Source of the DNA: Dictyostelium discoideum
Lineage: Eukaryota
Reading direction: 5' to 3'
Assembly: GCA_000004695.1 (NCBI GenBank)
Contig: CM000154.2
Span: 4,544,001-4,608,000, forward strand
DNA length: 64,000 nucleotides
A program made the position numbers and the translations under genes. The stretch's first letter is position 1, and each line of letters starts with the position of its first letter. The notes beneath the pieces were generated by a model, which ran no database searches, was not told the origin of the DNA, and was given only the letters and a program-made list of their open reading frames with translations. Positions 1 to 17,055 of the stretch are shown here, piece by piece.

Positions 1-3000
1 AATCCAAATTATCAAGTTGAAATCGAATATACATGGAGTGATATTTCACCTGCATTCATAGCAGATGCAAAGAATAAAATCAATAAAATCATTAATGATG
101 CTGCTATAACAAATGGATTAAATGTTATTTATCGTTCATTAACAATCGATGAATCATTGCTTGAAAATCAAGCAATTAAACCATCATATTATGATTTCGT
201 TATAATGTCAAATGTTCTTCATGTTGTTAAAAATATTAAACAAGCTGTAGAACAAATGTATCAATTGTTAACACCGAATGGTCAATTGCTATTTATAGAA
301 CCACCTTATAAATCAGTTCTAATCGATTCAATCATTGGTTCATTTGAACAATGGTGGTCATTCACTGATACTGATATTAGAAAAGATAGATGTGGTATGT
401 CTCAACAAAGTTGGTATCAATTATTAAAGACATGTAATTTTAAAGACATTTTAATGTCAAAAGAATGCATCTTTGTTGGGTCAGTAATACATGCACAAAA
501 ACCACCAATTTCTTTATTGAATTCTCAACCAAAACATGATAATATAATTATATATGGTGGTGGTGGTAATTTAAGTTTTGTAGAAAACATCAAATTAGAT
601 TCAAATTCAAAAAGTTTAATTCAAATTGAAACTATTCAAGAATTTAATCAATTATTAAGTCAATCAACAATTACAAATGATTCAATAATTTATTTCATAA
701 AAACATTAGAAACATTATCATTGGATAATTATAAACAAATAACTCTTGAATATATTGAAATCAATCAAAGACTATTACAAATCAATAGTTTATGTAAACA
801 TGTATTAATTGTTAGTGATTCAAGAAAAACTAACTATTTAGCATCATCAGTTGTTGGTGCTGCAAGATACTTTGATGAATTCCAACAATTGAAATTACAC
901 ACATTAGATTTTGATTATGATTCAACTCAAAATTATATAAATTCAAAAAATAACAAAATGGTTCAATTCATTAATATCTTGGTGGACTCCAAAACAAATG
1001 TTCATAAAGAAATGATTATAATTAATAACAAAGTATATTATGAAATAGTTCAAAAAGAGAAAAATCTAAAACTAAAATACAATTCAGAATCTTTTGAAAA
1101 TCAAAATAATTTAATGTGTTCATTATCACCAAATTTAGAATATCAATTACAATCAAAACAAATTAAATTAAGAGATAATCAAGTTGAAGTTAAAACAATT
1201 GCAACTGGTATCAATTATAAAGATTATTTAAATTTTAGCGGTTCAAATAATAATAATGGTGATGACAATACAGGTTTACCACAATTTGGATATGAATTTT
1301 CAGGTATTATAACAAGAGTTGGTAATAATGTAAAAGATTATAAAGTTGGTGATAATGTATTTGGTTTATCAAATTCTTGTACATCATCCCACATTGTTAC
1401 AAATTTTAAAAATATTCAATTAAAACCTTCAAACATAAGTCATAACGAAGCATCATCAATTCCAATTGATTATTTAACATCATTTATGAGTTTATTTAAT
1501 GTTGGTAGTTTAAATATTGAAGATAATGAATCAATTCTAATTCATTTAGGTAGTGATAGTTTTGGATTATCAACATTTGAAATATTAAAATGGAAAGGTT
1601 TTAAATCAAATTTATTCGTTACAGTTGATTTGGACGAAACTAAACAATATCTTCTAGATAGATATGGTGATTTTATTACTGGAATTTATTCAAACACAGA
1701 TAAAAGTTATGTTACAGAAATAAAAAACGAATTAATTAAATTAGGTTCAAAAAAGAAAGGAGTAGATTTAATATTAAATACATTACCAAGTGATTTTATG
1801 GATTCAAATTTCGAGTTATTAACAAAGAGTGGTAGAATAATTGATTTAACTTCAAATCATTTAAATCAAAGTGAATTTTTAAAAAATATCAATTTTAAAT
1901 ATAACCATGGTTACCACAACTTTCAGTTATCATTAATTCAAAAAAATAAAATACAAAAATGTTTATATGAAATTTCACATGCTATTGAAAATGGAGAATT
2001 AAAAACTATTCCAATTAAAGAATTTACAAATTTAAATATTAAAGATGCCATCAAATACATTACCAACGGTAACATTGAAAAAATTACAGTTAGTCATGAT
2101 CATGAAATTTATAGTGATATTATTTATAGATCTTTAGATGAAAAAGAGTTTTCAATATTAAAATCAAATTATCAAATTAATTCAAATAATTTAGGTAAAA
2201 ACATATTAATTACAGGTCAATCAGGTATTATTTTAGAAATATTAAAATGGATCATTAAATATTCAAATATTAACACAATTGAAAATGTTATTATTCTTTC
2301 AAGATCATCATTAAAATGGGAATTAGAATTATTAATTAATCAAACTAAACTATCAAATAATAATATTAAATTTCATTTCAAGAGTGTTGATGTCGGTGAT
2401 AGTGAACAAGTTGATAATGCAATCAATGAAATATTAAATGAAAATCAACAAATTACAAATATTGATTCAATATACCATTTTGCATTTCAACAAATTACAT
2501 GTAAAGTTCAAGAAATCAATATGAAACATTTAGATATTTCACATGGAGCAAAATCAATGGGTGCAGTTAATTTACATAATCAATCAATTAAACGTAATTG
2601 GAAATTAATTAATTTTGTTATGGCTTCTTCTGCACTTTCATTAATAGGTTCAACAGATCAATGTACATATGCCTGTGCAAACCTATTATTAGATTCATTT
2701 TCAAAATACAGAGAATCACTTGGATTACCATCTGCTTGTATTAACCTTGGGTCAATTGAATCAACTGGTTTCGTTTCAAAGAATGAATCAATTTCAGAAT
2801 TTACAGATGGCATTGGTTACGTTCCAACACCTATCAATCTAGTTTTAGGTCTTTTAGATTTACAAATTCAAAATGCAGGTAAATTTACGAATTCAATGCT
2901 TTCAAATTTAATATCATCAAAATTTAAAAATATTCAACAAACATCATTATTTCTAAAATTTGATTACTTGATGAATTTAAATGACAACAGTGAACAAACT

Positions 3001-3267
3001 AAAAAAGAGAATATTGGAAATAAAAACATTGATGAATTATTCATTGAGAAAGTTTCAGAATTATTTTCAACGGATCAATCAAGAATAAATAAAAATCTTA
3101 GATTAATTGATTATGGCGCAGATTCATTAATAATAGTTCAATTAAAGAATTGGATAGATAAAGAAATTGGTATAAATTTAATAACAATTAAACAACTTCA
3201 AAACAATACAATTAATATTTCAATCAAAATGATATTAAATTCATTAATGAAAAATAATCAAATATAG
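1..3267 (+). CDS. Type I polyketide synthase, copy A. 3' part only; the 5' end lies outside the window. Domains present: C-terminal MT, ER, KR and ACP.
   Basis: A continuous 1036-aa ORF. It is ~97% identical at nucleotide level to positions 10465..13735 of the downstream PKS. It has the MT C-terminal region, the ER motifs ([25 protein letters not shown]), the KR Rossmann motif ([14 protein letters not shown]) and the ACP motif ([12 protein letters not shown]). It ends at a TAG created by a 1-bp deletion relative to copy B (aatcaaatatag vs aatcaaaatatag). The reductase domain is deleted. Confidence 0.85.
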   Translation, partial: NPNYQVEIEYTWSDISPAFIADAKNKINKIINDAAITNGLNVIYRSLTIDESLLENQAIKPSYYDFVIMSNVLHVVKNIKQAVEQMYQLLTPNGQLLFIEPPYKSVLIDSIIGSFEQWWSFTDTDIRKDRCGMSQQSWYQLLKTCNFKDILMSKECIFVGSVIHAQKPPISLLNSQPKHDNIIIYGGGGNLSFVENIKLDSNSKSLIQIETIQEFNQLLSQSTITNDSIIYFIKTLETLSLDNYKQITLEYIEINQRLLQINSLCKHVLIVSDSRKTNYLASSVVGAARYFDEFQQLKLHTLDFDYDSTQNYINSKNNKMVQFINILVDSKTNVHKEMIIINNKVYYEIVQKEKNLKLKYNSESFENQNNLMCSLSPNLEYQLQSKQIKLRDNQVEVKTIATGINYKDYLNFSGSNNNNGDDNTGLPQFGYEFSGIITRVGNNVKDYKVGDNVFGLSNSCTSSHIVTNFKNIQLKPSNISHNEASSIPIDYLTSFMSLFNVGSLNIEDNESILIHLGSDSFGLSTFEILKWKGFKSNLFVTVDLDETKQYLLDRYGDFITGIYSNTDKSYVTEIKNELIKLGSKKKGVDLILNTLPSDFMDSNFELLTKSGRIIDLTSNHLNQSEFLKNINFKYNHGYHNFQLSLIQKNKIQKCLYEISHAIENGELKTIPIKEFTNLNIKDAIKYITNGNIEKITVSHDHEIYSDIIYRSLDEKEFSILKSNYQINSNNLGKNILITGQSGIILEILKWIIKYSNINTIENVIILSRSSLKWELELLINQTKLSNNNIKFHFKSVDVGDSEQVDNAINEILNENQQITNIDSIYHFAFQQITCKVQEINMKHLDISHGAKSMGAVNLHNQSIKRNWKLINFVMASSALSLIGSTDQCTYACANLLLDSFSKYRESLGLPSACINLGSIESTGFVSKNESISEFTDGIGYVPTPINLVLGLLDLQIQNAGKFTNSMLSNLISSKFKNIQQTSLFLKFDYLMNLNDNSEQTKKENIGNKNIDELFIEKVSELFSTDQSRINKNLRLIDYGADSLIIVQLKNWIDKEIGINLITIKQLQNNTINISIKMILNSLMKNNQI

Positions 3268-3639
3268 ATGACAATAATAATACATACAATAGATATTAAC
3301 CCAATGAAAATCAAAACATTACTAGAATTATCAACAGATAATGGGTGATCTTGAAATTTTTTATTTAAATAAGATTCAAATTTTACTTTGCGTTTTTTTT
3401 ATTTAATATTTTTAGATTTGGGTAGTTTTGGACATTATAAAATAAAAAATCTAAATCTAAATAAAATAAAAAATACAAATCTAAATTATTCTTTTTTATA
3501 AAAAAAAAAAAAAAAAAAAAAGTCAAATCAACATAAAAACATCTTCAGACATTATTTTTAAAATTGAATTTATAAAAAAAATTTTATTTATAAAAATAAA
3601 ATTTTTTCTCAATTAATATAGATATTTCAAAACTAAATT

Positions 3640-5095
3640 ATGAATAATTTTAAAAAATATAAATTTAATAGATAAAGGTGTTGCAATTGTTGGGGTGGGG
3701 TTCAGAATTCCTTCTGGTAATTATGAAAATTCAATTAGTTCACCAGATTATTAAATTTAATAATTTAAAGAATGGTTTTGATGGTGTTAGTAGTACATCA
3801 GAAAGATGGAGTGACAATTTTCATAAATTAGGTGAAATTAGTAGTCCAAATGCAGGTTTATTACCATTTAATGAATGCAAATCATTCGATCCATTATTTT
3901 TTGGTATTAATCCATCCGATGCTCATCAGATTGATCCTCAACAAAGATTATTATTAAAATGTACATGGGAAGTATTAGAAGATGCATCTATTGATCCAAT
4001 TTCAATTCGTGGTACAAATACTTCAGTTTTCATTGGTTCTTCAACTATCGATTATCAACTGTTTCGATTTTAATGGTCCATCATTTTCAATGCATGTTCA
4101 TCATCATTAAATGTTGTTTAATGTTTAAATATCAATGCTTTTTACCAAATATTCATTTCAAAAATCCAAATCCATTAATTAAATTCAATGAATGGAATTT
4201 AAAAGTTGTAACATCACCAATTCCATTCAACAAAAGAAATAATGAATTACCAGTTTCAATGATGATTAATAACTTTGGTTTAACAGGTTCAAATTGTTGT
4301 TTACTTTTAACAGAATATAAAAAACAAGATTATGAATCATATGAAACTATCTACAAAAATGATAATAGTAAAAATATATTAATACCATTTTCAGCAAATT
4401 CAACAAATTCATTAAATCAATACCAATCAAAATTTAAAAATATAAATAATAATCAATTCAATTTTATTGATTTTACCGCAAATCAAATTTATTCAAAATC
4501 AAATTATCTTTATCAAAGATCGGTTGTAATCGCAAGTAATTCAAATGAACTTTTTGAAAAAATTTTAAATAAAAAACAAATTCGAAATAAAAATTCAATC
4601 ATCTCAAATATGTCATTCAAAGGAAAGAATCCAATTACAATTTTTGTTTTTTCAGGTCAAGGATCACAATATCCTAAAATGGCTTTAGAATTATATAATA
4701 ATGAAGTAATCTTTAAAAAATCAATTGATTTAATCGATTCAAAATTATCAAAGTACTATGGTTATTCAGTATGGGAGAAGGTAAAAAAAATCAAAGATTA
4801 TGATACTACTTCCATTCATGATCCAACTATTGTACAACCAGCAGTGTGTATGTTTTCAGTATCATTATTTGAATTGTATTGCCATTGGGGAGTAAATCCA
4901 TCATTTATTCTTGGTCATAGTATTGGTGAAATTTCAACATTATATTGTTCTGGAATAATCGATTTAGATACATTTTATCACAGATCAATAGCACAAACTA
5001 AAACACACTGTAATGGTGGGCATCCACTGATATTGATATTAGGAAAAATAGATGTAGTATGTCTCAACAAAGTTGGTATCAATTATTAAATAACA
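3640..5095 (+). pseudogene. Mosaic PKS pseudogene fragment. It joins a KS N-terminus, a KS C-terminus/AT piece and an MT piece, with large internal deletions.
   Basis: 3640..4060 matches 6105..6540 of PKS-B, including the promoter-proximal sequence, but the ATG context is destroyed (atgaataattttaaaaaatataaatttaatagataa gives an immediate stop). Position 4060 jumps to the equivalent of ~6600 and then ~7305, so the KS active-site Cys (DTACSSSL) and His motifs are missing. 4110..5040 matches 7305..8200 (AT domain, GHSIGEISTLYCSG). 5040..5095 matches the MT region at 10845..10920. The ORF track shows the pieces in different frames (3678..4073 and 4073..5089). Confidence 0.8.
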
Positions 5096-5766
5096 GTAAT
5101 TATAAAGACATTGCAATGTGCATGCTAAAATTAAAAAGATTCCTTTATTGTATCCAAAAAATAAAAGTGAAAAAAAAAAAAAAAAGAATGGTTTAAAAAA
5201 AAAAAAAAAAGGGTTAAAAATATAATAAATTAATTTTTAATAAATGTTGAGAGAAAGTATTTAAATTTTTTTTTTATTTTATTTTTTATTTTTTTTTTTT
5301 TTCCTATTCTCTGGGATTATAATCTGAAAAAGGGTTTTTTTTTTTTAAACAAATATGGGCTTACTAATAATTTAAATTGGTAAAAAAAAACAGAAAGGAT
5401 GATATATACAAAAAAAAAAATATTTTTTGTCCTTGAATATAATTTTTTCAAATATTATATCATTGTTGTTTTATAATTAATTTGAATTTGTATAATTTTA
5501 TGAATTTTATCTGGTGTGAATCTGCAAAAAATTTTATATTTTTTTTTATTTTTTTATCTGGTGGAAATCTACAAAAAAAACAACAATAAATCTATAGATT
5601 TAAAAAATTAAAAAATCGTCATTATTTTTTTTTTTGGTATGGCTTTCTCTAAACGAATCCCCACGAAAAAAAATTATAAACTTCTAATTTTCTAAGGCCA
5701 CAGTGCTGCACAAAATTACTTTTCACTTTATAGTGCTGAAATTTTTACATCCAACCCCCAAAATTT

Positions 5767-6114: not shown

Positions 6115-9100
6115 ATGGGTAATTTAAAAAATATAAATTTAAAAGAGAAAGGAGTTGCAATTGTTGGTATTGGATTTAGAATTCCTTCTGGTAATAATGA
6201 AAATTCAATTAGTTCACCAGATGATTTATTTAATAATTTAAAGAATGGTTTTGATGGTGTTAGTAGTACATCAGAAAGATGGAGTGACAATTTTCATAAA
6301 TTAGGTGAAATTAGTAGTCCAAATGCAGGTTTATTACCATTTAAAGAATGGAAATCATTCGACCCATTATTTTTTGGTATTAATCCATCTGAAGCTCCAT
6401 TAATCGATCCTCAACAAAGATTATTATTAAAATGTACATGGGAAGCATTAGAAGATGCATCTATTGATCCAATTTCAATTCGTGGTACAAATACTTCAGT
6501 TTTCATTGGTTCTTCAACTATTGATTATTTACATACAAATAAACATCAAGACTCAGTTTTAAAGAATGCAATAGCACAATCAACCAGTGCGATTTCAAAT
6601 AGAATTTCATACTGTTTCGATTTTAATGGTCCATCACTATCAATTGATACTGCATGTTCATCATCATTAAATGCAGTTTCTCAAGGTTATCATTCAATAT
6701 TAAATGGTACTTCCAATATGTCAATTGTTGGTGGTGTAAATTTAATATTAGGTAAGGATTATTATTTTTTTTTTAAAATTAAAAATACACTTATTAATTA
6801 AAATTTATTTTTATTAGATGTTGATATTATAAAAGCATATTCGATTTTAAGCATGTTAAGTAAAACACATGGTAAATGTAAAACATTTGATGAAAGTGGC
6901 GATGGTTTTACACGTGGTGAATGTGTCGGTGTTGTAGTTTTAAAGAATTTACAAGATGCAGTAAAAGATGGTAATAGAATTTATTGTGTAATTAATGGTT
7001 CAAGTTCAAATGTTGATGGTAATGGTAATATGGATAAAGTTAACTTTTATTCACCATCAAAACAATCACAATTTAATAATATTAATTCAGCATTTAAGTC
7101 AACAAATGACAAACTCTCGATTAATGATATTCAATATATCGAAGCACATGGTACCGGTACTAAAACAGGCGATCCAATTGAAACTGAAGCAATTTCAATG
7201 GCTTTTAAAAATAGAGATAAATCAACACCAATTCTAATTGGTTCAATTAAAAGTAATATTGGTCATTGTGAAGCTGGTTCAGGTGTTGCATCATTAATCA
7301 AATGTTGTTTAATGTTTAAATATCAATGCTTTTTACCAAATATTCATTTCAAAAATCCAAATCCATTAATTAAATTCAATGAATGGAATTTAAAAGTTGT
7401 AACCTCACCAATTCCATTCAACAAAAGAAATAATGAAAAACCAGTTTCAATGATGATTAATAACTTTGGTGTAACAGGTTCAAATTGTTGTTTACTTATT
7501 TCAGAATTTAAAAATAACAATAACTTTAAAGAGAATATTAATTTAGAATCTCAAAGTGTTAATGATAGAGTGTTAATACCATTCTCAGCAAATTCATCAA
7601 ATTCATTAAATCAATACCAATCAAAATTTAAAAATATAATTAATAATCAATTCAATTTTATTGATTTTACCGCAAATCAAATTTATTCAAAATCAAATTT
7701 TCTTTATCAAAGATCAGTTGTAATTGCAAGTAATTCAAATGAACTTTTTGAAAATATCTCAAATAAAAAACAAATTCAAACTAAAAATTCAATCATCTCA
7801 AATATGTCATTCAAAGGAAAGAACCCAATTACAATTTTTGTTTTTTCAGGTCAAGGATCACAATATCCTAAAATGGCTTTAGAATTATATAATAATGAAG
7901 TAATCTTTAAAAAGTCAATTGATTTAATCGATTCAAAATTATCAAAGTACTATGGTTTTTCAGTATGGGAGAAGGTAAAAACAATCAAAGATGATGACTT
8001 AACCTCAATACATGATCCAATTTTTGCCCAACCAGCACTATGTATGATTTCAGTATCACTATTTGAATTATATTACCATTGGGGAGTAAATCCATCATTT
8101 ATTCTTGGTCATAGTCTTGGTGAAATTTCAGCATCATATTGTTCTGGAATGATTGATTTAGATACATTCTGTTATACAGTTTATCAAAGATCAATAGCAC
8201 AATCTAAAACAAATGGTTGTGGTAGAATGTTATCAATTAATATCAGTGATGAAGAATTTAAATCAATGTATTCTCAAAAGTATCCACAAATTGAAATCGC
8301 ATGTTATAATTCACCTCAATCAATTGTTGTGGCAGGTAATGAATCAATATTAAATGAAATTTCAAAAGAATTAAAAGAAAAAGAAATTTTCACCACAATG
8401 TTAGGTTCATTATCATCATTCCATACAAGTAGCCAACAATGTACAAAAGATAGTATATTACAACTAAACATTGAAAGTAATCAACCAAAAGTACCAATAT
8501 TTTCAACAGTTACAACAAATTTATTTAATGAATCAAATCGATTTAATTCACAATATGTTTATGATAATATTATCAAACCAGTTAAATTCACACAAACAAT
8601 TTCAAATATTTATAAACATATCGAATCAAATCAATTAAATAATGAAATTGTATTCATTGAAATTGCACCACATCCAACATTATTATTTTATATTAAACAA
8701 ATGGTACCATCAAGTTTAAATGAATCAGTTTCAGTTTATTCAGCACTTCATAAGAAAAAGAATGATGTCGAAGAGTTTCAACAAACCATTTCAAATTTAT
8801 ATTGTCAAAATGGATATAATATTAATTTTAAATGTCAATTTAATAATAAAAAATCAAATCAATCAATAAATTTACCACTTTACCAATGGGATGAAGAATT
8901 ATATTTCACTCAAGCCCAAACTCTCGAACAACATAGAAAAGAAGGACCACCAATTGACCATCTTGGTACATCAAACTCTTATAATTCACCATTTAATAAT
9001 TCATATAGAACATCAATCGATATAAAGAATAAACCATTTCTATATCTTAAAGGCCATATGGTTAAAGGTAAATACTACTTCCCAGGTTGTGGTTATATTG

Positions 9101-12100
9101 ATAATATTATTCAACTTTATAAAAATCAAGATATTTTTATTAGTTTTATTGAATTTAAAACACCATTAATTTTAATTGAAGGTATCAATCAATATTTACA
9201 AACAAACATTCAACAAACTGGTAAAAGTGAATATCGTGCACAATTTCATTTCAAAGATCAAAAATCAAATGAATGGATTCAATCATCAAATGCAAATTTC
9301 CAATTATTAGATCATGGTAATGATATACCACCAAAGTATAATATTAAAGAAATTATTGAAAACAAATGTAATTTAAGCAAATTAACAAAGAATGAACTTT
9401 ATACACATATAAAATCAAAAACTGGTTTAAATTATACTGGAGTTTTTCAAGGTGTTACTGAATGTTATATAGGTGGTGATTGTACATTATCAGTTGTATC
9501 TTTAGAATCTCAAACAAACTCATTTTTAAATATACCAATATTAGATACTTGTTTACATGGAATGATAGGATTGTCAAATGATCAATGTCAAATTGTATTT
9601 GATAAAGCTATTGGATTTAAATATTATTCATCAAACATACCAGCAAATTTAAAAGATTATAAAGATAGTGTTTATGTTTATTCCCATTTAAAATCAAAAA
9701 GTGTTGATTCATTCTTTGGATCTATAATAGTAATGTTATCAGATGGTTCAGTTTTATATGAAATTGAAGAAGTTGTTTGTAAATCATTAATTCCAATCAA
9801 AGATTCACTTAAAATTGAGTATCCTAATGATGAATTATACAAAGTTCATTTACAATCAAAAGATTCTCCAATTCCAACACCATCATCATTCAAATCAATT
9901 ATTTATGAAAATGATTTCTTCCATTCTGCACTTAATATTCCAGAAGATTTATTCAAATATATTTCAACATTATTTTATAAAGATATTATAAAAAGATGTC
10001 CAGAAATTAATATCAATAAAATTAATTCTCATAGTGTTAATGAAATTATTTCAAGTTTCAGTAAAATTTCAAAACACGAAAGATTATTTAGATTTGTATT
10101 TGAAACAATAAAAGAGAATGGTATTCTTAATAGTTTGGAAGAAAATGATGATGCTTATTTCGAATTTAATGAAGTAATTATCAAATCGTCAAGAATTATT
10201 TCAAAATTATTATTCCCACTAGAAAGTGATAATGATAATGAAGATTTACCTCAATCATTATTTCAAAATGGTTTAATGGATAAAATTTATAAATGCAGAT
10301 ATTTAAGAAAGAAGAATCAAATGATTTCACATGTTATTAAACATTCAATTAAAGAGATTATTAATAATAATATTATAATTAGAATTTTAGAATTTGGAGG
10401 AGGTACTGCATCATTATCAGTTGAAGTTATTGAAGAAATAATTGCATTACTTCAAGAGAATCCAAATTATCAAGTTGAAATCGAATATACATGGAGTGAT
10501 ATTTCACCTGCATTCATAGCAGATGCAAAGAATAAAATCAATAAAATCATTAATGATGCTGCTATAACAAATGGATTTAATGTTATTTATCGTCCATTAA
10601 AAATTGATGAATCATTGATAGAAACTCAATCAATTAATCCATCATATTATGATTTCGTTATAATGTCAAATGTTCTTCATGTTGTTAAAAATATTAAACA
10701 AGCTGTAGAACAAATGTATCAATTGTTGACTCCAAATGGTCAATTACTATTTTTAGAGCCACCTTATAAATCAGTTCTAAATGATTCAATAGTTGGTTCA
10801 TTTGAACAATGGTGGTCATTCACTGATACTGATATTAGAAAAGATAGATGTAGTATGTCTCAACAAAGTTGGTGTCAATTATTAAAGACATGTAATTTTA
10901 AAGACATTGCAATGTCTAAAGAATGCATCTTTGTTGGTATTGTAATACATGCACAAAAACCACCAATTTCTTTATTGAATTCTCAACCAAAACGTGATAA
11001 TATAATTATATATGGTGGTGGTAATCCAATTTTTGTAGAAAACATCAAATTATATTCAAATTCAAAAAGTTTAATTCAAATTGAAACTATTCAAGAATTT
11101 AATCAATTATTAAGTCAATCAACAATAACAAACGATTCAATCATTTATTTCATAAAAACATTAGAAACATTATCATTGGATAATTTTAAACAAATAACTC
11201 TTGAATATATTGAAATCAATCGAAAATTATTACAAATCAATAGTTTATGTAAACATGTATTAATTGTTAGTGATTCAAGAAAAACTAACTATTTAGCATC
11301 ATCAGTTGTTGGTGCAGCAAGATACTTTGATGAATTCCAACAATTGAAACTAAATACTTTAGATTTTGATTATGATTCAACTCAAAATTATATAAATTCA
11401 AATAATAAAGATATGGTTCAATTCATTAATATCTTGACAGATTCCAAAACAAATGTTCATAAAGAAATGATTATAATTAATAATAAAGTATATTATGAAA
11501 TAGTTCAAAAAGAGAAAAATCTAAAATTAAAATACAATTCAGAATCTTTTGAAAATCAAAATAATTTAATGTGTTCATTATCACCAAATTTAGAATATCA
11601 ATTACAATCAAAACAAATTAAATTAAGAGATAATCAAGTTGAAGTTAAAACAATTGCAACTGGTATCAATTATAAAGATTATTTAAATTTTAGTGGTTCA
11701 AATAGCAACGGTGATGACAATACAGGTTTACCACAATTTGGATATGAATTTTCAGGTATTATAACAAGAGTTGGTAATAATGTAAAAGATTATAAAGTTG
11801 GTGATAATGTATTTGGTTTATCAAATTCTTGTACATCATCTCACATTGTTACAAATTATAAAAAAATTCAAATAAAACCTTCAAACCTAAGTCATAACGA
11901 AGCATCATCAATTCCAATTGATTATTTAACATCATTTATGAGTTTATTTAATATTGGTAGTTTAAATATTGAAGATAATGAATCAATTTTAATTCATTTA
12001 GGTAGTGATGGTTTTGGATTATCAACATTTGAAATATTAAAATGGAAAGGTTTTAATTCAAATTTATTCGTTACAGTAAATTCATATGAAACTAAACGAT

Positions 12101-14976
12101 ATCTTCAAGATAATTACGGTGATTTTATTACTGGAATTTATTCAAACACAGATAAAAGTTATGTTACAGAAATAAATAAAAAATTAATTAAATTAGGTTC
12201 AAAAAAGAAAGGAGTAGATTTAATATTAAATACATTACCAAGTGATTTTATGGATTCAAATTTCAAGCTATTAGCAAAGTATGGTAGAATAATTGATTTA
12301 ACGTCAAATCATTTAAATCAAAGTGAATTTTTAAAAAATATCAATTTTAAATATAATCATGGTTACCATAACTTTGAGTTATCATTAATTCAAAAAAATA
12401 AAATTCACAAATGTTTATATGAAATTTCAAATGCTTTTGAAAATGGAGAATTAAAAACCATTCCAATTAAAGAATTTACAAATTTAAATATTAAAGATGC
12501 CATCAAATACATTACCAACAATAAAATTGAAAAAATTACAGTTAGTCATGATCATGAAATTTATAGTGATATTATTTATAGATCTTTAGATGAAAAAGAG
12601 TTTTCAATATTAAAATCAAATTATCAAATTAATTCAAATAATTTAGGTAAAAACATATTAGTCACAGGTCAATCAGGTATTATTTTAGAAATATTAAAAT
12701 GGATCATTAAATATTCAAATATTAATACAATTGAAAATGTTATTATTCTTTCAAGATCATCATTAAAATGGGAATTAGAATTATTAATTAACGAAACTAA
12801 ACTATCAAATAATAATATTAAATTTCATTTCAAGAGTGTTGATATCGGTGATAGTGAACAAGTTGATAATGCAATCAATGAAATATTAAATGAAAACCAA
12901 CAAATTACAAATATTGATTCAATATACCATTTTGCATTTCAACAAATTACATGTAAAGTTCAAGAAATCAATATGAAACATTTAGATATTTCACATGGAG
13001 CAAAATCAATGGGAGCAATTAATTTACATAATCAATCAATTAAACGTAATTGGAAATTAATTAATTTTGTTATGGCTTCATCTGCAATTTCATTAATAGG
13101 TTCAACTGATTTATGTACATATGTTTGTGCAAATGCATTATTAGATTCATTTTCAAAATACAGAGAATCACTTGGATTACCATCAACTTGCATTTGCCTT
13201 GGTGCAATTGAATCAACTGGTTTCGTTTCAAAGAATGAATCAGTTTCAGTATTTTTAGACGGTGGTGGTTTCCATCCAACACCAATCAATCAAGTTTTAG
13301 GCCTTTTAGATTTACAAATTCAAAATGCTGGTAAATTCACAAATTCAATGCTTTCAAATTTCAAACCCTCAAAATTTAAAAATAATCAACAAACATCATT
13401 ATTTTTAAAATTTGATTACTTGATGAATTTAAAAAACAATAGCGAAGAAACCAAAATAGAGAATACTGGAAATAAGAACATTGATGAATTATTCATTGAG
13501 AAAGTTTCAGAATTATTTTCAATGGATGAATCAAAGATAAATAAAAATCTTAGATTAATCGATTATGGTGCAGATTCACTAATAATAGTTCAATTAAAAA
13601 ATTGGATAGATAAAGAAATTGGTATAAATTTAATAACAATTCAACAACTTCAAAACAATACAATTAGCACTTCAATGAAAATGATATTAAATTCATTAAT
13701 GAAAAATAATCAAAATATAGATGACAATAATAAAGACCTACCTTCAAATAGAATCGATTATTGGAAGAATGAAATGAAATTTGAAGAGTCTATTAAACCA
13801 ATATCAAATGAAATACAATCAAGGAATAATTCAGAAAAAATTATTTTATTAACCGGTACAACTGGTTTTTTAGGTGGTTTCTTATTATTCAATATGGTAA
13901 GATTAGATTCATGTAAATTAATTTATTGTTTAATTAGAAATAAAAGTAAATCAAATAATCCATTAGATGAAATTATAAATAATTTAAAATATCATCAACT
14001 TTATGAAAAATTAAATCAATCACAAATTTCAAAGATTATACCAATTATTGGTGATTTATCAATGAATAAACTTGGTCTTTCAAATGATGATTATGAAACA
14101 ATTTCAAAAAATGTAAATTTAATAATCAATCCAGGTGCAGATATTAATCAAAAATCAAGTTACCAAGATTGTAAATTAGTAAATGTAAATGGAGTAAAAG
14201 AAATTATTAAATTATCATTATCATCATTAAAACAAAGGATACCAATTGTAAACTTTTCATCATTTTCAGTATTTTTCAATCAATCACTTGATAAGAATTT
14301 TGATGAATCAGTTTTACCATCAATTGATAATATTGATAATTTACCAACAGAATATATGAAGAGTAAAGTTGTTGGTGAATATATTTTATTGGAAGCTTCT
14401 AAAAAATATAATATACCATCAATTTTAATTAGACCACCAAGTATATTTTTAAATCCAGAAACAGGTATTGGTCATATTAGTGACTTCTCTTTATTATCAA
14501 TCCAATCATGTTATGAATTAGGTTATTATCCAAATCAATTTGAAAATGATTTTATTTTAATTAATACAATTACATGGTTATCAAATAATATTACAAATAT
14601 TATAATGAATGATAATTGTTGGACAGATTCAAAAATGAATATTTATAATGTACATGGTAAACAAATTCAATCAAGTTTAATAATTAAACCACTTGAAAAA
14701 CATTTCAATTGTAAACATATCAATACTAATGATTGGATTGATATGGTAAATAATTCAAATAAAAAATCATGTATTAAATTAAAATCATTCCATTCTTTGG
14801 ATATAATTTTAAAAAGTGAAAACAATAGATATAAACCCAATGAAAATCAAAGCATATCATTATCAACCAAATCATTACTAGAATCAATGGGCTCATACAA
14901 CACTGATCTTGAAATCACTGATAAAATGATTATTTCTCATATTAATCAAATTTTTAATTTAAATGAAACAATTTAA
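6115..14976 (+). CDS. Highly reducing type I polyketide synthase, copy B. Domains: KS-AT-DH-MT-ER-KR-ACP plus a C-terminal reductase (R). Exons 6115..6751 and 6818..14976, with a 66-bp intron at 6752..6817. About 2931 aa.
   Basis: - KS: N-terminus [26 protein letters not shown], active site [11 protein letters not shown], His motifs [14 protein letters not shown] and [10 protein letters not shown].
- AT: [14 protein letters not shown].
- DH: HxxxGxxxxP-type, [19 protein letters not shown].
- MT: [12 protein letters not shown].
- ER: [12 protein letters not shown]...[12 protein letters not shown].
- KR: [14 protein letters not shown].
- ACP: [14 protein letters not shown].
- C-terminal NAD(P)-binding reductase: [15 protein letters not shown].
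- Intron donor G|GTAAGG at 6752, acceptor TTATTAG| at 6817. The joined frame reads ...[33 protein letters not shown], the conserved KS motif. Confidence 0.9.
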
Positions 14977-15094
14977 TTAAAAAATAAAATTTTAAAATTT
15001 TAATAAATATAAATATAATTTTTAATTTATTTATTTTTTTTTATTATTACTATTATTATTATTATTATTATTATTATTTTTTAATTAATTAATT

Positions 15095-16064
15095 TTAACC
15101 TCTTGAAATATCTCTACCGAAAACACTACTCTTTAACCAATCGAAAGAGACTAAAGCACGATTTCTAACACTTAAAAGTTTAGTGAAATATACACTTCTC
15201 CAGAGGTAATAAGTGATATAACCTTCAGAGACAGTTGTTGAATGATCACCTTTGAATTCAGCTACAGCTTGATGATCACCAACATAAGCTAAAGTACCCA
15301 TATGTTTATATTTAAATAATGGTTTCTCTTTGACGGCTTCCTCAAAGCTTTTATTTGAACCAGTGATTGAATTGAAAAGGTTTAATTTCTCTTGTTGTTT
15401 TTCTTTTTCCTCTTTATGTGCATCTGGATTCTCTCTCTTTTTAATGAGATCATTATTCATTTCCTCTGCCAATTGATTGAATAATCTGCCTAAATAACGA
15501 CCTTGTTGAGAAGCAACTTGAGCAGTTTGAGCCAATGGTTTTGATGGATTAATTGAAGCATCACCAATTGACCAAATTCCATCAGTACCAGCCACTCTGA
15601 AATAATCATCAACAACCAAACCTCTTCTATTGTTTTGAATATTTGGTCCGATCGATTGCATAATTTGAGTGGTAATCTTTCTTGGTGTATTACCGGTTGC
15701 CCATACTAATAAACCGTATGGATGAATTGATTCCTCTTTGGTTGTAGTATTCTTTACTGTAATCTCTTTCTCTCTAACTCCAACAACTGCTGTCTTTGTC
15801 CAAATCTTTGTATTGTTTGAACTTTGAAGACGTTTTTCAACATGATCAATAATCTTCTTATCAAAAATTGTTAAAATATGTGGAAGTGCTTCAACTAATG
15901 TAACATTAATTCTCTTTGCTAATGGATATGTTTTTAATAAATCTGATTGAAGGAAATCATTTAATTCTGCTGTAAATTCAACACCAGATGGACCTAAAAT
16001 AAAAATAAAAAAATAAAAAATAAAAAATAAAAAAATTTGAAAATTAAAAATGATTAGGACAGCG

Positions 16065-16098
<34 letters not shown>

Positions 16099-17055
16099 GG
16101 AAAAATATATAAATAAACTTACCACCACCAACTACAACGAAATTTAATAAACGATCAATTTCTTTTTCAGGTTGACCAGGATAAGAAGCAGTTTCAAGAC
16201 AATCAATAATTTTATCTCTAATGTTACGAGTATCATTAATTTCTTTTAAGAAACAAGCATTCTCTTTTACACCTGGAATACCAAAGGTTTGATTATCGGC
16301 ACCGACACCAACGATCAAATGATCATACTCTAATTCGAATTCTGAAACTTCACCTTTTACAGCACTATTATCATAACATTTAACCTTTTTAGAAACTGGA
16401 TCAACTGATAAACATTCTGCTTCATAAAAAGTTGCATCCTCTGCATCTGCTCTCTTACAATACTTTCTAATTGGTTCCATAATTGATCTAACTTCAACTG
16501 TACCTGTTGTACCACCAACTAATAATGGTGTAAATAAAAAGTAATTTCTTTTTTTTTTTTTTTAAATTTAAAATAAATTAGTAAATAAGATTAAAATAAA
16601 AATAAAATTAAATAATTTAATTACCTTGGTGAAATGATTGTAACATCAAATAAATCAGTATGTAATTTTCTTAAGAAACATAATGAACCCCAACCAGTAC
16701 CAAGAATGACAACTTTTGGTCTTTTCTTTCTTTCACTTTCTGGTAATCTAGTTCTAAATTTATCAGTGACTGAATCGAAATCATCATTAACCACCATATC
16801 AATTATCCAAAAACCACCTAAACCTGCTACTGCTAATCCACCCCAAAATGCAAATTTATTCATTTTCTTTTTTGGTTCTTGTTCTTTTTGTTGTTGTTGT
16901 TGTTGATTTTGTTCATTATTATTACTATTATCAGTTGATGTCGAAAATCTTTGTATAAATTGTGTTTGATTATTTTTACATGCGACAATACGATTTGTTG
17001 ACACTGTTTTAATTAATTGATTTTTATTAACTTTTGAAAATGCTCTTGAAATCAT
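15095..17055 (-). CDS. Type II NADH:quinone oxidoreductase (NDH-2; alternative or external NADH dehydrogenase, mitochondrial). Exons 17055..16625, 16547..16123 and 15993..15095.
   Basis: - Exon 1 carries the first dinucleotide-binding motif, PKVVILGTGWGS...VTIISPR.
- Intron 1: donor AG|GTAATT, acceptor AAAAG|A. It restores ISP-R-NYFLFTPLL, the conserved NDH-2 motif.
- Intron 2: donor G|GTAAGT, acceptor TATTTTAG|GT. It restores the second Rossmann motif VVVGGGPSGVEFTAEL.
- The C-terminus (YLWRSVYFTKLLSVRNRALVSFDWLKSSVFGRDISR) is typical of the NDI1/NDE family.
- Splice phases check: 431 + 425 + 899 nt, about 584 aa. Confidence 0.85.

Follow-up and report, generated by a model that had tools for sequence, protein, structure and literature searches.

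A probable C-terminal thioester reductase domain in the polyketide synthase Pks9/36 of Dictyostelium discoideum

Few of the 40 polyketide synthases (PKSs) of Dictyostelium discoideum have known products; the locus described here encodes one of these enzymes, Pks9/36. The stretch analyzed (hereinafter referred to as the window) comprised 64,000 nucleotides of contig CM000154.2 (assembly GCA_000004695.1; positions 4,544,001 to 4,608,000 of the forward strand), with a G+C content of approximately 22%; all coordinates below refer to this window. An initial annotation had proposed that the end of this PKS, there called PKS-B, is a reductive release domain. Our analysis indicated that positions 13843 to 14976, at the 3' end of the long plus-strand gene encoding Pks9/36, most likely specify a C-terminal thioester reductase domain (TR, also termed R) that functions in reductive chain release from the acyl carrier protein (ACP). 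The family profiles, the sequence matches to solved R and TR domains, a confident structural model, and the fold search all agreed with that reading.

Profiles, homologues, and fold of the C-terminal domain

The ACP domain of Pks9/36 (13459 to 13731, plus strand) was identified by Pfam ACP_SdgA_C (108.6 bits) together with PP-binding, and ends at about residue 2517. The phosphopantetheine-attachment residue, Ser2466, is the serine of DSL within the motif DYGADSL (codon 13576-13578). The initial annotation had described a continuation of about 400 residues after the ACP, which was borne out: 414 residues follow the ACP end in the 2931-residue protein, and translation of 13840-14976 reaches the stop codon. 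A low-complexity linker of about 37 residues (13732 to 13842, plus strand) fills the gap between the Pfam ACP span and the span of the NCBIfam profile TIGR01746. The part of this linker included in the structural model (model residues 1-19; the query started at 13780) was predicted at a pLDDT of 48-62 and had no secondary structure.

Directly C-terminal to the ACP, the Pfam family NAD_binding_4 (PF07993) was matched with 176.9 bits (E = 5.6e-52; gathering score 20.1). TIGR01746, named "thioester reductase domain," was also strongly matched (E = 8e-43), the alignment covering model positions 2-349 of 371. Further NCBIfam matches were aminoadipate-semialdehyde dehydrogenase, carboxylic acid reductase (CAR), and MxcG, all of which are reductive-release enzymes. 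The TR is an extended short-chain dehydrogenase/reductase (SDR) with two subdomains, both encoded on the plus strand. The N-terminal Rossmann subdomain, which is the NAD(P)H-binding and catalytic part, spans 13843 to 14565 (residues ~2555-2795), with NAD_binding_4 aligned at 13849-14565 and TIGR01746 aligned from 13843. The C-terminal subdomain, for binding of the substrate and carrier protein, spans 14566 to 14973 (residues ~2796-2931); the TIGR01746 alignment reaches 14907, and the subdomain is folded in the model.

The best-matching relatives of solved structure in the phmmer search were all terminal reductases: the R domain of MxaA (E = 5.3e-25), the TR of a Streptomyces coelicolor PKS (8v1x; E = 2.5e-22), CAR, an R domain from a nonribosomal peptide synthetase (NRPS) of Mycobacterium tuberculosis, and the R domain of AusA. 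An AlphaFold2 model of the domain, built on an alignment of 34 sequences, showed the two-subdomain TR fold with a mean pLDDT of 87.1 and a pTM of 0.89. It was folded and mostly confident to the C-terminus, and its Rossmann part consisted of alternating strands and helices with pLDDT values mostly above 90. When the model was compared with the PDB using Foldseek, each of the top 25 matches was a terminal reductase domain from a PKS, NRPS, or CAR enzyme. TM scores of 0.77-0.78 were obtained for the MxaA R domain (4u7w/4w4t) and for 8v1x over approximately 380-390 columns, an extent which implies that the Rossmann part and the C-terminal substrate subdomain are both present. Other high matches included an archaeal NRPS T-R didomain, CAR R domains, the M. 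tuberculosis NRPS R domain, and the R domain of PhqB. Lower matches were the rice fatty-acyl reductase DPW, the R domain of AusA, and generic extended SDRs.

The presence of DPW (7eoz) among the fold matches bears on an alternative, namely that the domain is a reductase without being the release catalyst. It might resemble fatty acyl-CoA reductases (FARs) of the "male sterility" family and act on free acyl-CoA, or it might tailor the released product as an aldehyde or ketone reductase. NAD_binding_4 ("Male sterility protein") covers FARs as well, and TR domains accept acyl-CoA mimics in vitro (PMC2995488; bioRxiv 10.1101/2024.10.29.620908). However, terminal R domains of PKS, NRPS, and CAR enzymes outscored FARs in both the sequence and the fold searches, and covalent fusion about 37 residues after an ACP is the arrangement of every characterized terminal TR. 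We therefore consider a FAR-like or tailoring role improbable, and a TR acting in chain release remains the preferred assignment.

In a representative library of about 1.84 billion proteins, the closest relatives were PKSs with the same domain order, KS-AT-MT-ER-KR-ACP-NAD_binding_4. A word-indexed protein search with the TR returned only two short fragments from Dictyostelium cf. discoideum. Two proteins of about 440 residues from Dictyostelium cf. discoideum (P0001 and P0012) appeared to be free-standing TR-like proteins, with 40-42% identity to the TR of Pks9/36 and with SSFSV and YxxSK intact; they may be encoded by stand-alone reductase genes or result from mis-calling of the 3' part of PKS genes. 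Another protein of the representative library (P0016; 1745 residues) carried a TR-like NAD_binding_4 domain at its N-terminus followed by a FAD_binding_4 oxidase domain, and PKS domains were absent from it. The same reductase is here part of a different kind of fusion.

Active-site and cofactor-binding residues

Conservation was counted among 151 homologues taken from the representative library. The sequence strings cited in the initial annotation were all found where it had placed them, with the ACP motif upstream and the GxxGxxG motif present as GTTGFLG. This glycine-rich dinucleotide-binding motif, (T)GTTGFLG (13855 to 13875, plus strand; residues 2558-2565), is the sole GxxGxxG in the entire protein and corresponds to the invariant TGX2GX2G of the CpkC TR. 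Each of its three glycines (G2559, G2562, and G2565) was kept in 143 of the homologues.

TR domains carry a Ser/Thr-Tyr-Lys triad in addition to GxxGxxG (bioRxiv 10.1101/2023.05.23.541938), and alignment and model together place the predicted catalytic triad of Pks9/36 at S2694-Y2725-K2729. S2694 (14260 to 14262, plus strand), in the sequence FSSFSV, aligns with the Thr of VSTVSV in MxaA, and S2693/S2694 lie at the end of model strand 156-159. The triad column contained Thr in 87 and Ser in 51 homologues (138 of 151 together). Y2725, the presumed proton donor, and K2729 belong to the sequence YMKSK (14353 to 14367, plus strand), which aligns with gYaqSKwvaE in MxaA and gYlrSKwvaE in 8v1x. They were kept in 148 and 146 homologues, respectively, and both were present in 23 of 23 long PKS-type matches. 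In the model, Y2725 stands at the N-terminus of a long helix (191-210), which is the canonical position in SDRs. Tyr has likewise been described as the proton donor in the CpkC TR, and aldehydes as the products set free by bacterial PKS TRs (bioRxiv 10.1101/2024.10.29.620908).

A strong reductase-family match and a Tyr/Lys dyad are thus both present, the dyad being Y2725/K2729 and not, as the initial annotation had it, the YxxxK of YQDCK. YQDCK (14161 to 14175, plus strand; residues 2661-2665) aligns with YESMR in MxaA and YETLK in 8v1x, whereas YMKSK aligns with the catalytic YxxxK of MxaA, and for this reason YQDCK is not the catalytic dyad. It belongs to a conserved structural motif, Y-x-x-x-(K/R)-x-x-N-V-x-G-T, occurring as (P)YxxLKxxNVxGT at the start of helix alpha4; in the model, Y2661 opens helix 128-135 right after strand beta4. 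The Tyr was kept in 143 of the 151 homologues, and the last position was Lys in 117 and Arg in 18, a variation that is expected for a structural motif. The similarity to reductases goes far beyond chance and beyond two short motifs, which alone would have been no evidence. YxxxK by itself is uninformative here, since 8 copies were counted in the protein, where composition predicts 9.6.

Arg1824 of CpkC binds the 2'-phosphate of NADP+ (bioRxiv 10.1101/2024.10.29.620908). From the phmmer alignment, we read R2586 of the sequence CLIR (13936 to 13938, plus strand) as its probable equivalent and thus as the first 2'-phosphate-binding arginine position; it aligns with clvR of MxaA and 8v1x, and Arg was found in 142 of 151 homologues. 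Where CpkC has R1834, the second arginine for the NADP+ 2'-phosphate, Pks9/36 has E2597 (13969-13971), a position mapped by counting ten residues along the phmmer alignment. Among the 151 homologues, 112 had Arg or Lys in this column. The library proteins most closely related to the domain (P0001 and P0008 to P0013, presumed to be dictyostelid) carried Glu, Asp, Ala, or Val there, all without a basic residue, and had in common the motif CL(I/L)RNK..(4)..NP(I/L)(D/N)(E/D)I(I/L)NNLK. Because Glu appears to replace the second arginine, the cofactor preference is uncertain, and the alignment suggests that the position may mark a clade-specific difference in cofactor binding.

These residues bear on a further alternative, in which the domain is a redox-incompetent R* domain that performs a non-reductive Dieckmann/Claisen-type cyclization, as in fungal PKS-NRPS tetramate synthetases. 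R* domains are placed after an NRPS module, and in them the catalytic Tyr is typically lost and/or the NAD(P)H motif is degenerate. The terminal domain of a fungal PKS-NRPS, PsoA (9x29), was indeed among the sequence matches (E = 1.5e-11), although its score was far lower than those of MxaA and of 8v1x, the S. coelicolor PKS TR. Pks9/36 retains both the catalytic Tyr/Lys and an intact glycine-rich NAD(P)H motif, and Dieckmann chemistry would require a beta-ketoamide that no NRPS module is there to provide, which makes this alternative extremely improbable. Identity as an R* Dieckmann cyclase was rejected on these grounds, NRPS domains being absent from the protein.

The gene, its paralogues, and the standing of the assignment

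The gene consists of two plus-strand exons. Exon 1 (6115 to 6751), defined from the open reading frame (ORF) list and the sequence, starts with the codon for Met1, ends after base 1 of codon 213, and covers the N-terminal half of the ketosynthase (KS). The following intron (6752 to 6817, plus strand; 66 nt, GT...AG) has the donor GTAAGG and the acceptor TTATTAG. Exon 2 (6818 to 14976), based on Pfam matches in ORF 6853-14973, encodes the remaining KS, acyltransferase (AT), a weak dehydratase (DH), methyltransferase (MT), enoylreductase (ER), ketoreductase (KR), ACP, and TR up to the stop codon. Joining 6751 to 6818 brings the frame back, and the spliced product of 2931 residues exactly matches, at every residue, the database protein "Probable polyketide synthase 9/36" of D. 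discoideum AX4 (DDB_G0271530 / DDB_G0295659, XP_001733037.1), a strain with two identical copies of the gene. Its 90%-identity cluster also contains Pks6 (2924 residues) and Pks7 (2513 residues).

The domain order by Pfam was KS, AT, weak DH, MT, ER, KR, ACP, and NAD_binding_4. In ORF 6853-14973, E-values were 1.3e-44 for Acyl_transf_1, 1.3e-12 for Methyltransf_12, 6.2e-09 for ADH_N, 2.8e-23 for KR, and 1.7e-31 for ACP_SdgA_C. PKS_DH_N gave a weak match under its gathering score (E = 1.9e-3; ORF residues ~724-799), and all other domains were strong. Pks9/36 is thus an iterative type I reducing PKS of the order KS-AT-(DH)-MT-ER-KR-ACP-TR.

The window begins inside a second PKS gene, PKS-A (1-3267), possibly Pks8/35, whose product has 91.6% identity to residues 1427-2511 of Pks9/36 and stops directly after the ACP. 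The DNA homology between PKS-A and PKS-B runs 14 nt past the PKS-A stop codon, and a 1-nt indel (CAAATATAG vs CAAAATATAG) brings the TAG into frame in PKS-A. Downstream of this stop codon, a decayed remnant of the TR C-terminal tail was found (3286 to 3384, plus strand), which pairs with PKS-B 14822-14954, within the final ~150 nt that code for the TR. In a gapped local alignment of 3286-3419 with 14822-15000, 108 of 117 aligned bases were identical. This alignment scored 100.5, and 200 shuffles gave 44.4 ± 5.5 (maximum 58); the ungapped core matched at 32 of 34 positions. A tblastn search of the window with the TR found no second intact TR, and the remnant was visible only in the DNA-level alignment. 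The gap in homology followed by the TR tail implies that PKS-A underwent a deletion of about 1.09 kb that removed nearly all of the TR, and the remnant implies that the TR was ancestral in this paralogue group and lost in PKS-A. The sequence ACAATA, common to both edges of the deletion, may represent microhomology. The remnant is small but clean evidence that TR-less members of the paralogue group derive by loss.

Between PKS-A and PKS-B (3650-5121), pieces of a degraded PKS pseudogene were present in different frames and with large internal deletions. They corresponded to the KS N-terminus (residues 4-138, 88-94% identity), the KS-AT linker and AT start (372-681, 82%), and a short piece (1544-1579).

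Several points weigh against the assignment of a functional TR to Pks9/36. The TIGR01746 score of 147.1 bits lies below the curated NCBI cut-off of 213.35, a threshold from the library that NCBI uses for naming bacterial and archaeal proteins. Ser, a common residue in SDRs, replaces the triad Thr, whereas all characterized bacterial and fungal TRs have Thr (bioRxiv 10.1101/2023.05.23.541938). The second 2'-phosphate arginine appears to be replaced by E2597, as described above. The TR is evolutionarily dispensable, as the neighboring paralogue PKS-A has lost it. A literature search found no published assay or demonstrated activity of any Dictyostelium TR. Further, chimeric fusions of a bacterial PKS with Dictyostelium TRs had no detectable function according to unpublished data of one group (bioRxiv 10.1101/2024.10.29.620908), a result obtained in a heterologous, non-cognate ACP context.

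Some of these points would fit a domain that has the TR fold and is catalytically silent or vestigial, either serving a structural role only or being lost. Release would then take another route, for example via a trans-acting hydrolase or spontaneously, as it must in TR-less paralogues. The adjacent PKS-A, at 92% identity, lost its TR by the ~1.09-kb deletion while its ORF is still open through the ACP, and Pks7 (2513 residues) ends right after its ACP; the Arg-to-Glu change and the unpublished remark on the chimeras point the same way. In contrast, the residues for hydride transfer and dinucleotide binding (the three glycines, R2586, S2694, Y2725, and K2729) are all intact and conserved in Pks9/36, and the same residues are retained in relatives down to 30% identity. 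The TR coding region runs for 1.1 kb without a frameshift or stop codon in a genome of 22% GC. In addition, Pks9/36 and Pks6 share 94.7% identity in the Rossmann part of the TR, a conservation equal to that of the other domains. A silent domain is accordingly unlikely, and we retain the reading as a TR that releases the chain.

The distribution of the domain allows a further, tentative suggestion. The TR is retained in two members of a very young tandem PKS family, Pks9/36 and Pks6, and is missing from PKS-A and Pks7. It might be a natural on/off switch through which near-identical machinery releases related polyketides as an aldehyde or alcohol in one case and as an acid in the other. As part of the same suggestion, the closest TR relatives (presumed dictyostelid), in which the second arginine is acidic or neutral, may differ in cofactor use from bacterial PKS TRs, e.g., by accepting NADH like the TR of Toxoplasma (TgTR).

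The neighboring genes encode an NDH2-type flavoprotein, an eIF2B-family protein, a Sec7/GBF1-like protein, and a Myb protein. A clustered tailoring gene (transaminase or alcohol dehydrogenase) was sought among these neighbors and none was found, nor was there an evident biosynthetic partner. The NDH2-type flavoprotein (461 residues; 15095-16480, minus strand; Pyr_redox_2, E = 7e-33; NDH2_C, E = 6.3e-23) is encoded convergently, with its 3' end ~120 nt from the PKS stop codon and with no evident biosynthetic link.

Predicted release mechanism and comparison with known systems

A release mechanism may be proposed from that of characterized TRs. The Rossmann subdomain would bind NAD(P)H via TGTTGFLG and R2586, and the C-terminal subdomain would form the pocket for the acyl chain and phosphopantetheine. 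Once complete, the acyl chain, attached through its thioester to the phosphopantetheine arm on Ser2466, would swing into the TR active site, where hydride from NAD(P)H would attack the thioester carbonyl. Y2725, its pKa lowered by K2729, and S2694 would act as acid and oxyanion stabilizers that polarize and protonate the oxygen. The thiohemiacetal would then collapse to a free aldehyde and holo-ACP, and a second, non-processive reduction to the primary alcohol would be possible.

Reductive release means that the product would be an aldehyde or alcohol and not a free acid, as the initial annotation had suggested; for Pks9/36, a reduced (methyl-branched) polyketide aldehyde or alcohol is thus predicted. 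The alcohol-forming R domain of MxaA and the aldehyde-forming TR of the CpkC type match the Pks9/36 TR equally well, so that sequence does not decide between two- and four-electron reduction. Pks5, a relative without a TR, produces long-chain unsaturated fatty acids (PMC9618038), which fits the view that the presence of a TR decides the oxidation state of the released end.

The call has practical use. Every residue needed for catalysis is present in the TR of Pks9/36, and for synthases that end in a competent reductase, the search for products narrows to aldehydes or alcohols rather than acids. For mutagenesis, the Tyr/Lys pair to be targeted is Y2725/K2729, not Y2661/K2665.

At the level of annotation, the Pks9/36 TR is already known: the gene is annotated, and published work assigns this domain type to roughly half of the 40 D. 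discoideum PKSs. The domain call as such opens no new question, since it is in the literature and recoverable by a routine Pfam scan. Optional product-release domains were already mentioned by Sucgang et al. (2011), and Dictyostelium TRs are mentioned in a 2024 preprint (bioRxiv 10.1101/2024.10.29.620908). In a later study (Mol Cell Proteomics 2025; PMC12828403), offloading enzymes were reported downstream of the ACP in 21 of 40 D. discoideum PKSs; two of them are chalcone synthases, and the remainder were described as "most likely monomeric thioester reductases." The Pks9/36 TR is one of these predicted TRs and shows no difference from them. Pks9/36 is not individually named in the text or supplements of that study, in which the per-gene marking is given as a figure, and our literature search of Dictyostelium papers found none that names Pks9/36 specifically.

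Among characterized systems, the terminal R domain of MxaA, from the myxalamid PKS-NRPS of Stigmatella aurantiaca (4u7w/4w4t), was the best match to the Pks9/36 TR in sequence (E = 5.3e-25) and in fold (TM 0.78, 381 columns). MxaA performs a four-electron reduction to the alcohol. The two domains share the two-subdomain architecture, TGxxGxxG, the CLxR arginine, the S/T-Y-K triad, and YxxSK. They differ in that identity is only about 23%, and in MxaA the domain is preceded by an NRPS carrier protein, the triad contains Thr, and Arg occupies the position of E2597.

The CpkC-type TR of the coelimycin PKS from S. coelicolor (8v1x; E = 2.5e-22, TM 0.77-0.78) is likewise a terminal TR after a PKS ACP, and it shares with Pks9/36 the aligned catalytic Tyr, TGX2GX2G, and the first 2'-phosphate Arg. 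CpkC belongs to a bacterial PKS of the modular type, its preference for NADPH is conferred by two arginines, and reduction ends with an aldehyde that is used by a clustered transaminase (bioRxiv 10.1101/2024.10.29.620908). Unlike CpkC, Pks9/36 is iterative, is without the second Arg, and has no transaminase apparent alongside.

Type I fatty acid synthases or PKSs that also end in an R or TR domain are found in other protists, namely CpFAS1 of Cryptosporidium (CpFAS1-R; PMC2995488) and TgPKS2 of Toxoplasma (bioRxiv 10.1101/2023.05.23.541938). These apicomplexan synthases, which are likened to Pks9/36 by description only, are modular and not iterative. Both terminal domains reduce acyl thioesters in vitro: CpFAS1-R accepts only C20-C26 acyl chains (PMC2995488), and TgTR has an Asn-Tyr-Lys triad and uses NADH only (bioRxiv 10.1101/2023.05.23.541938).

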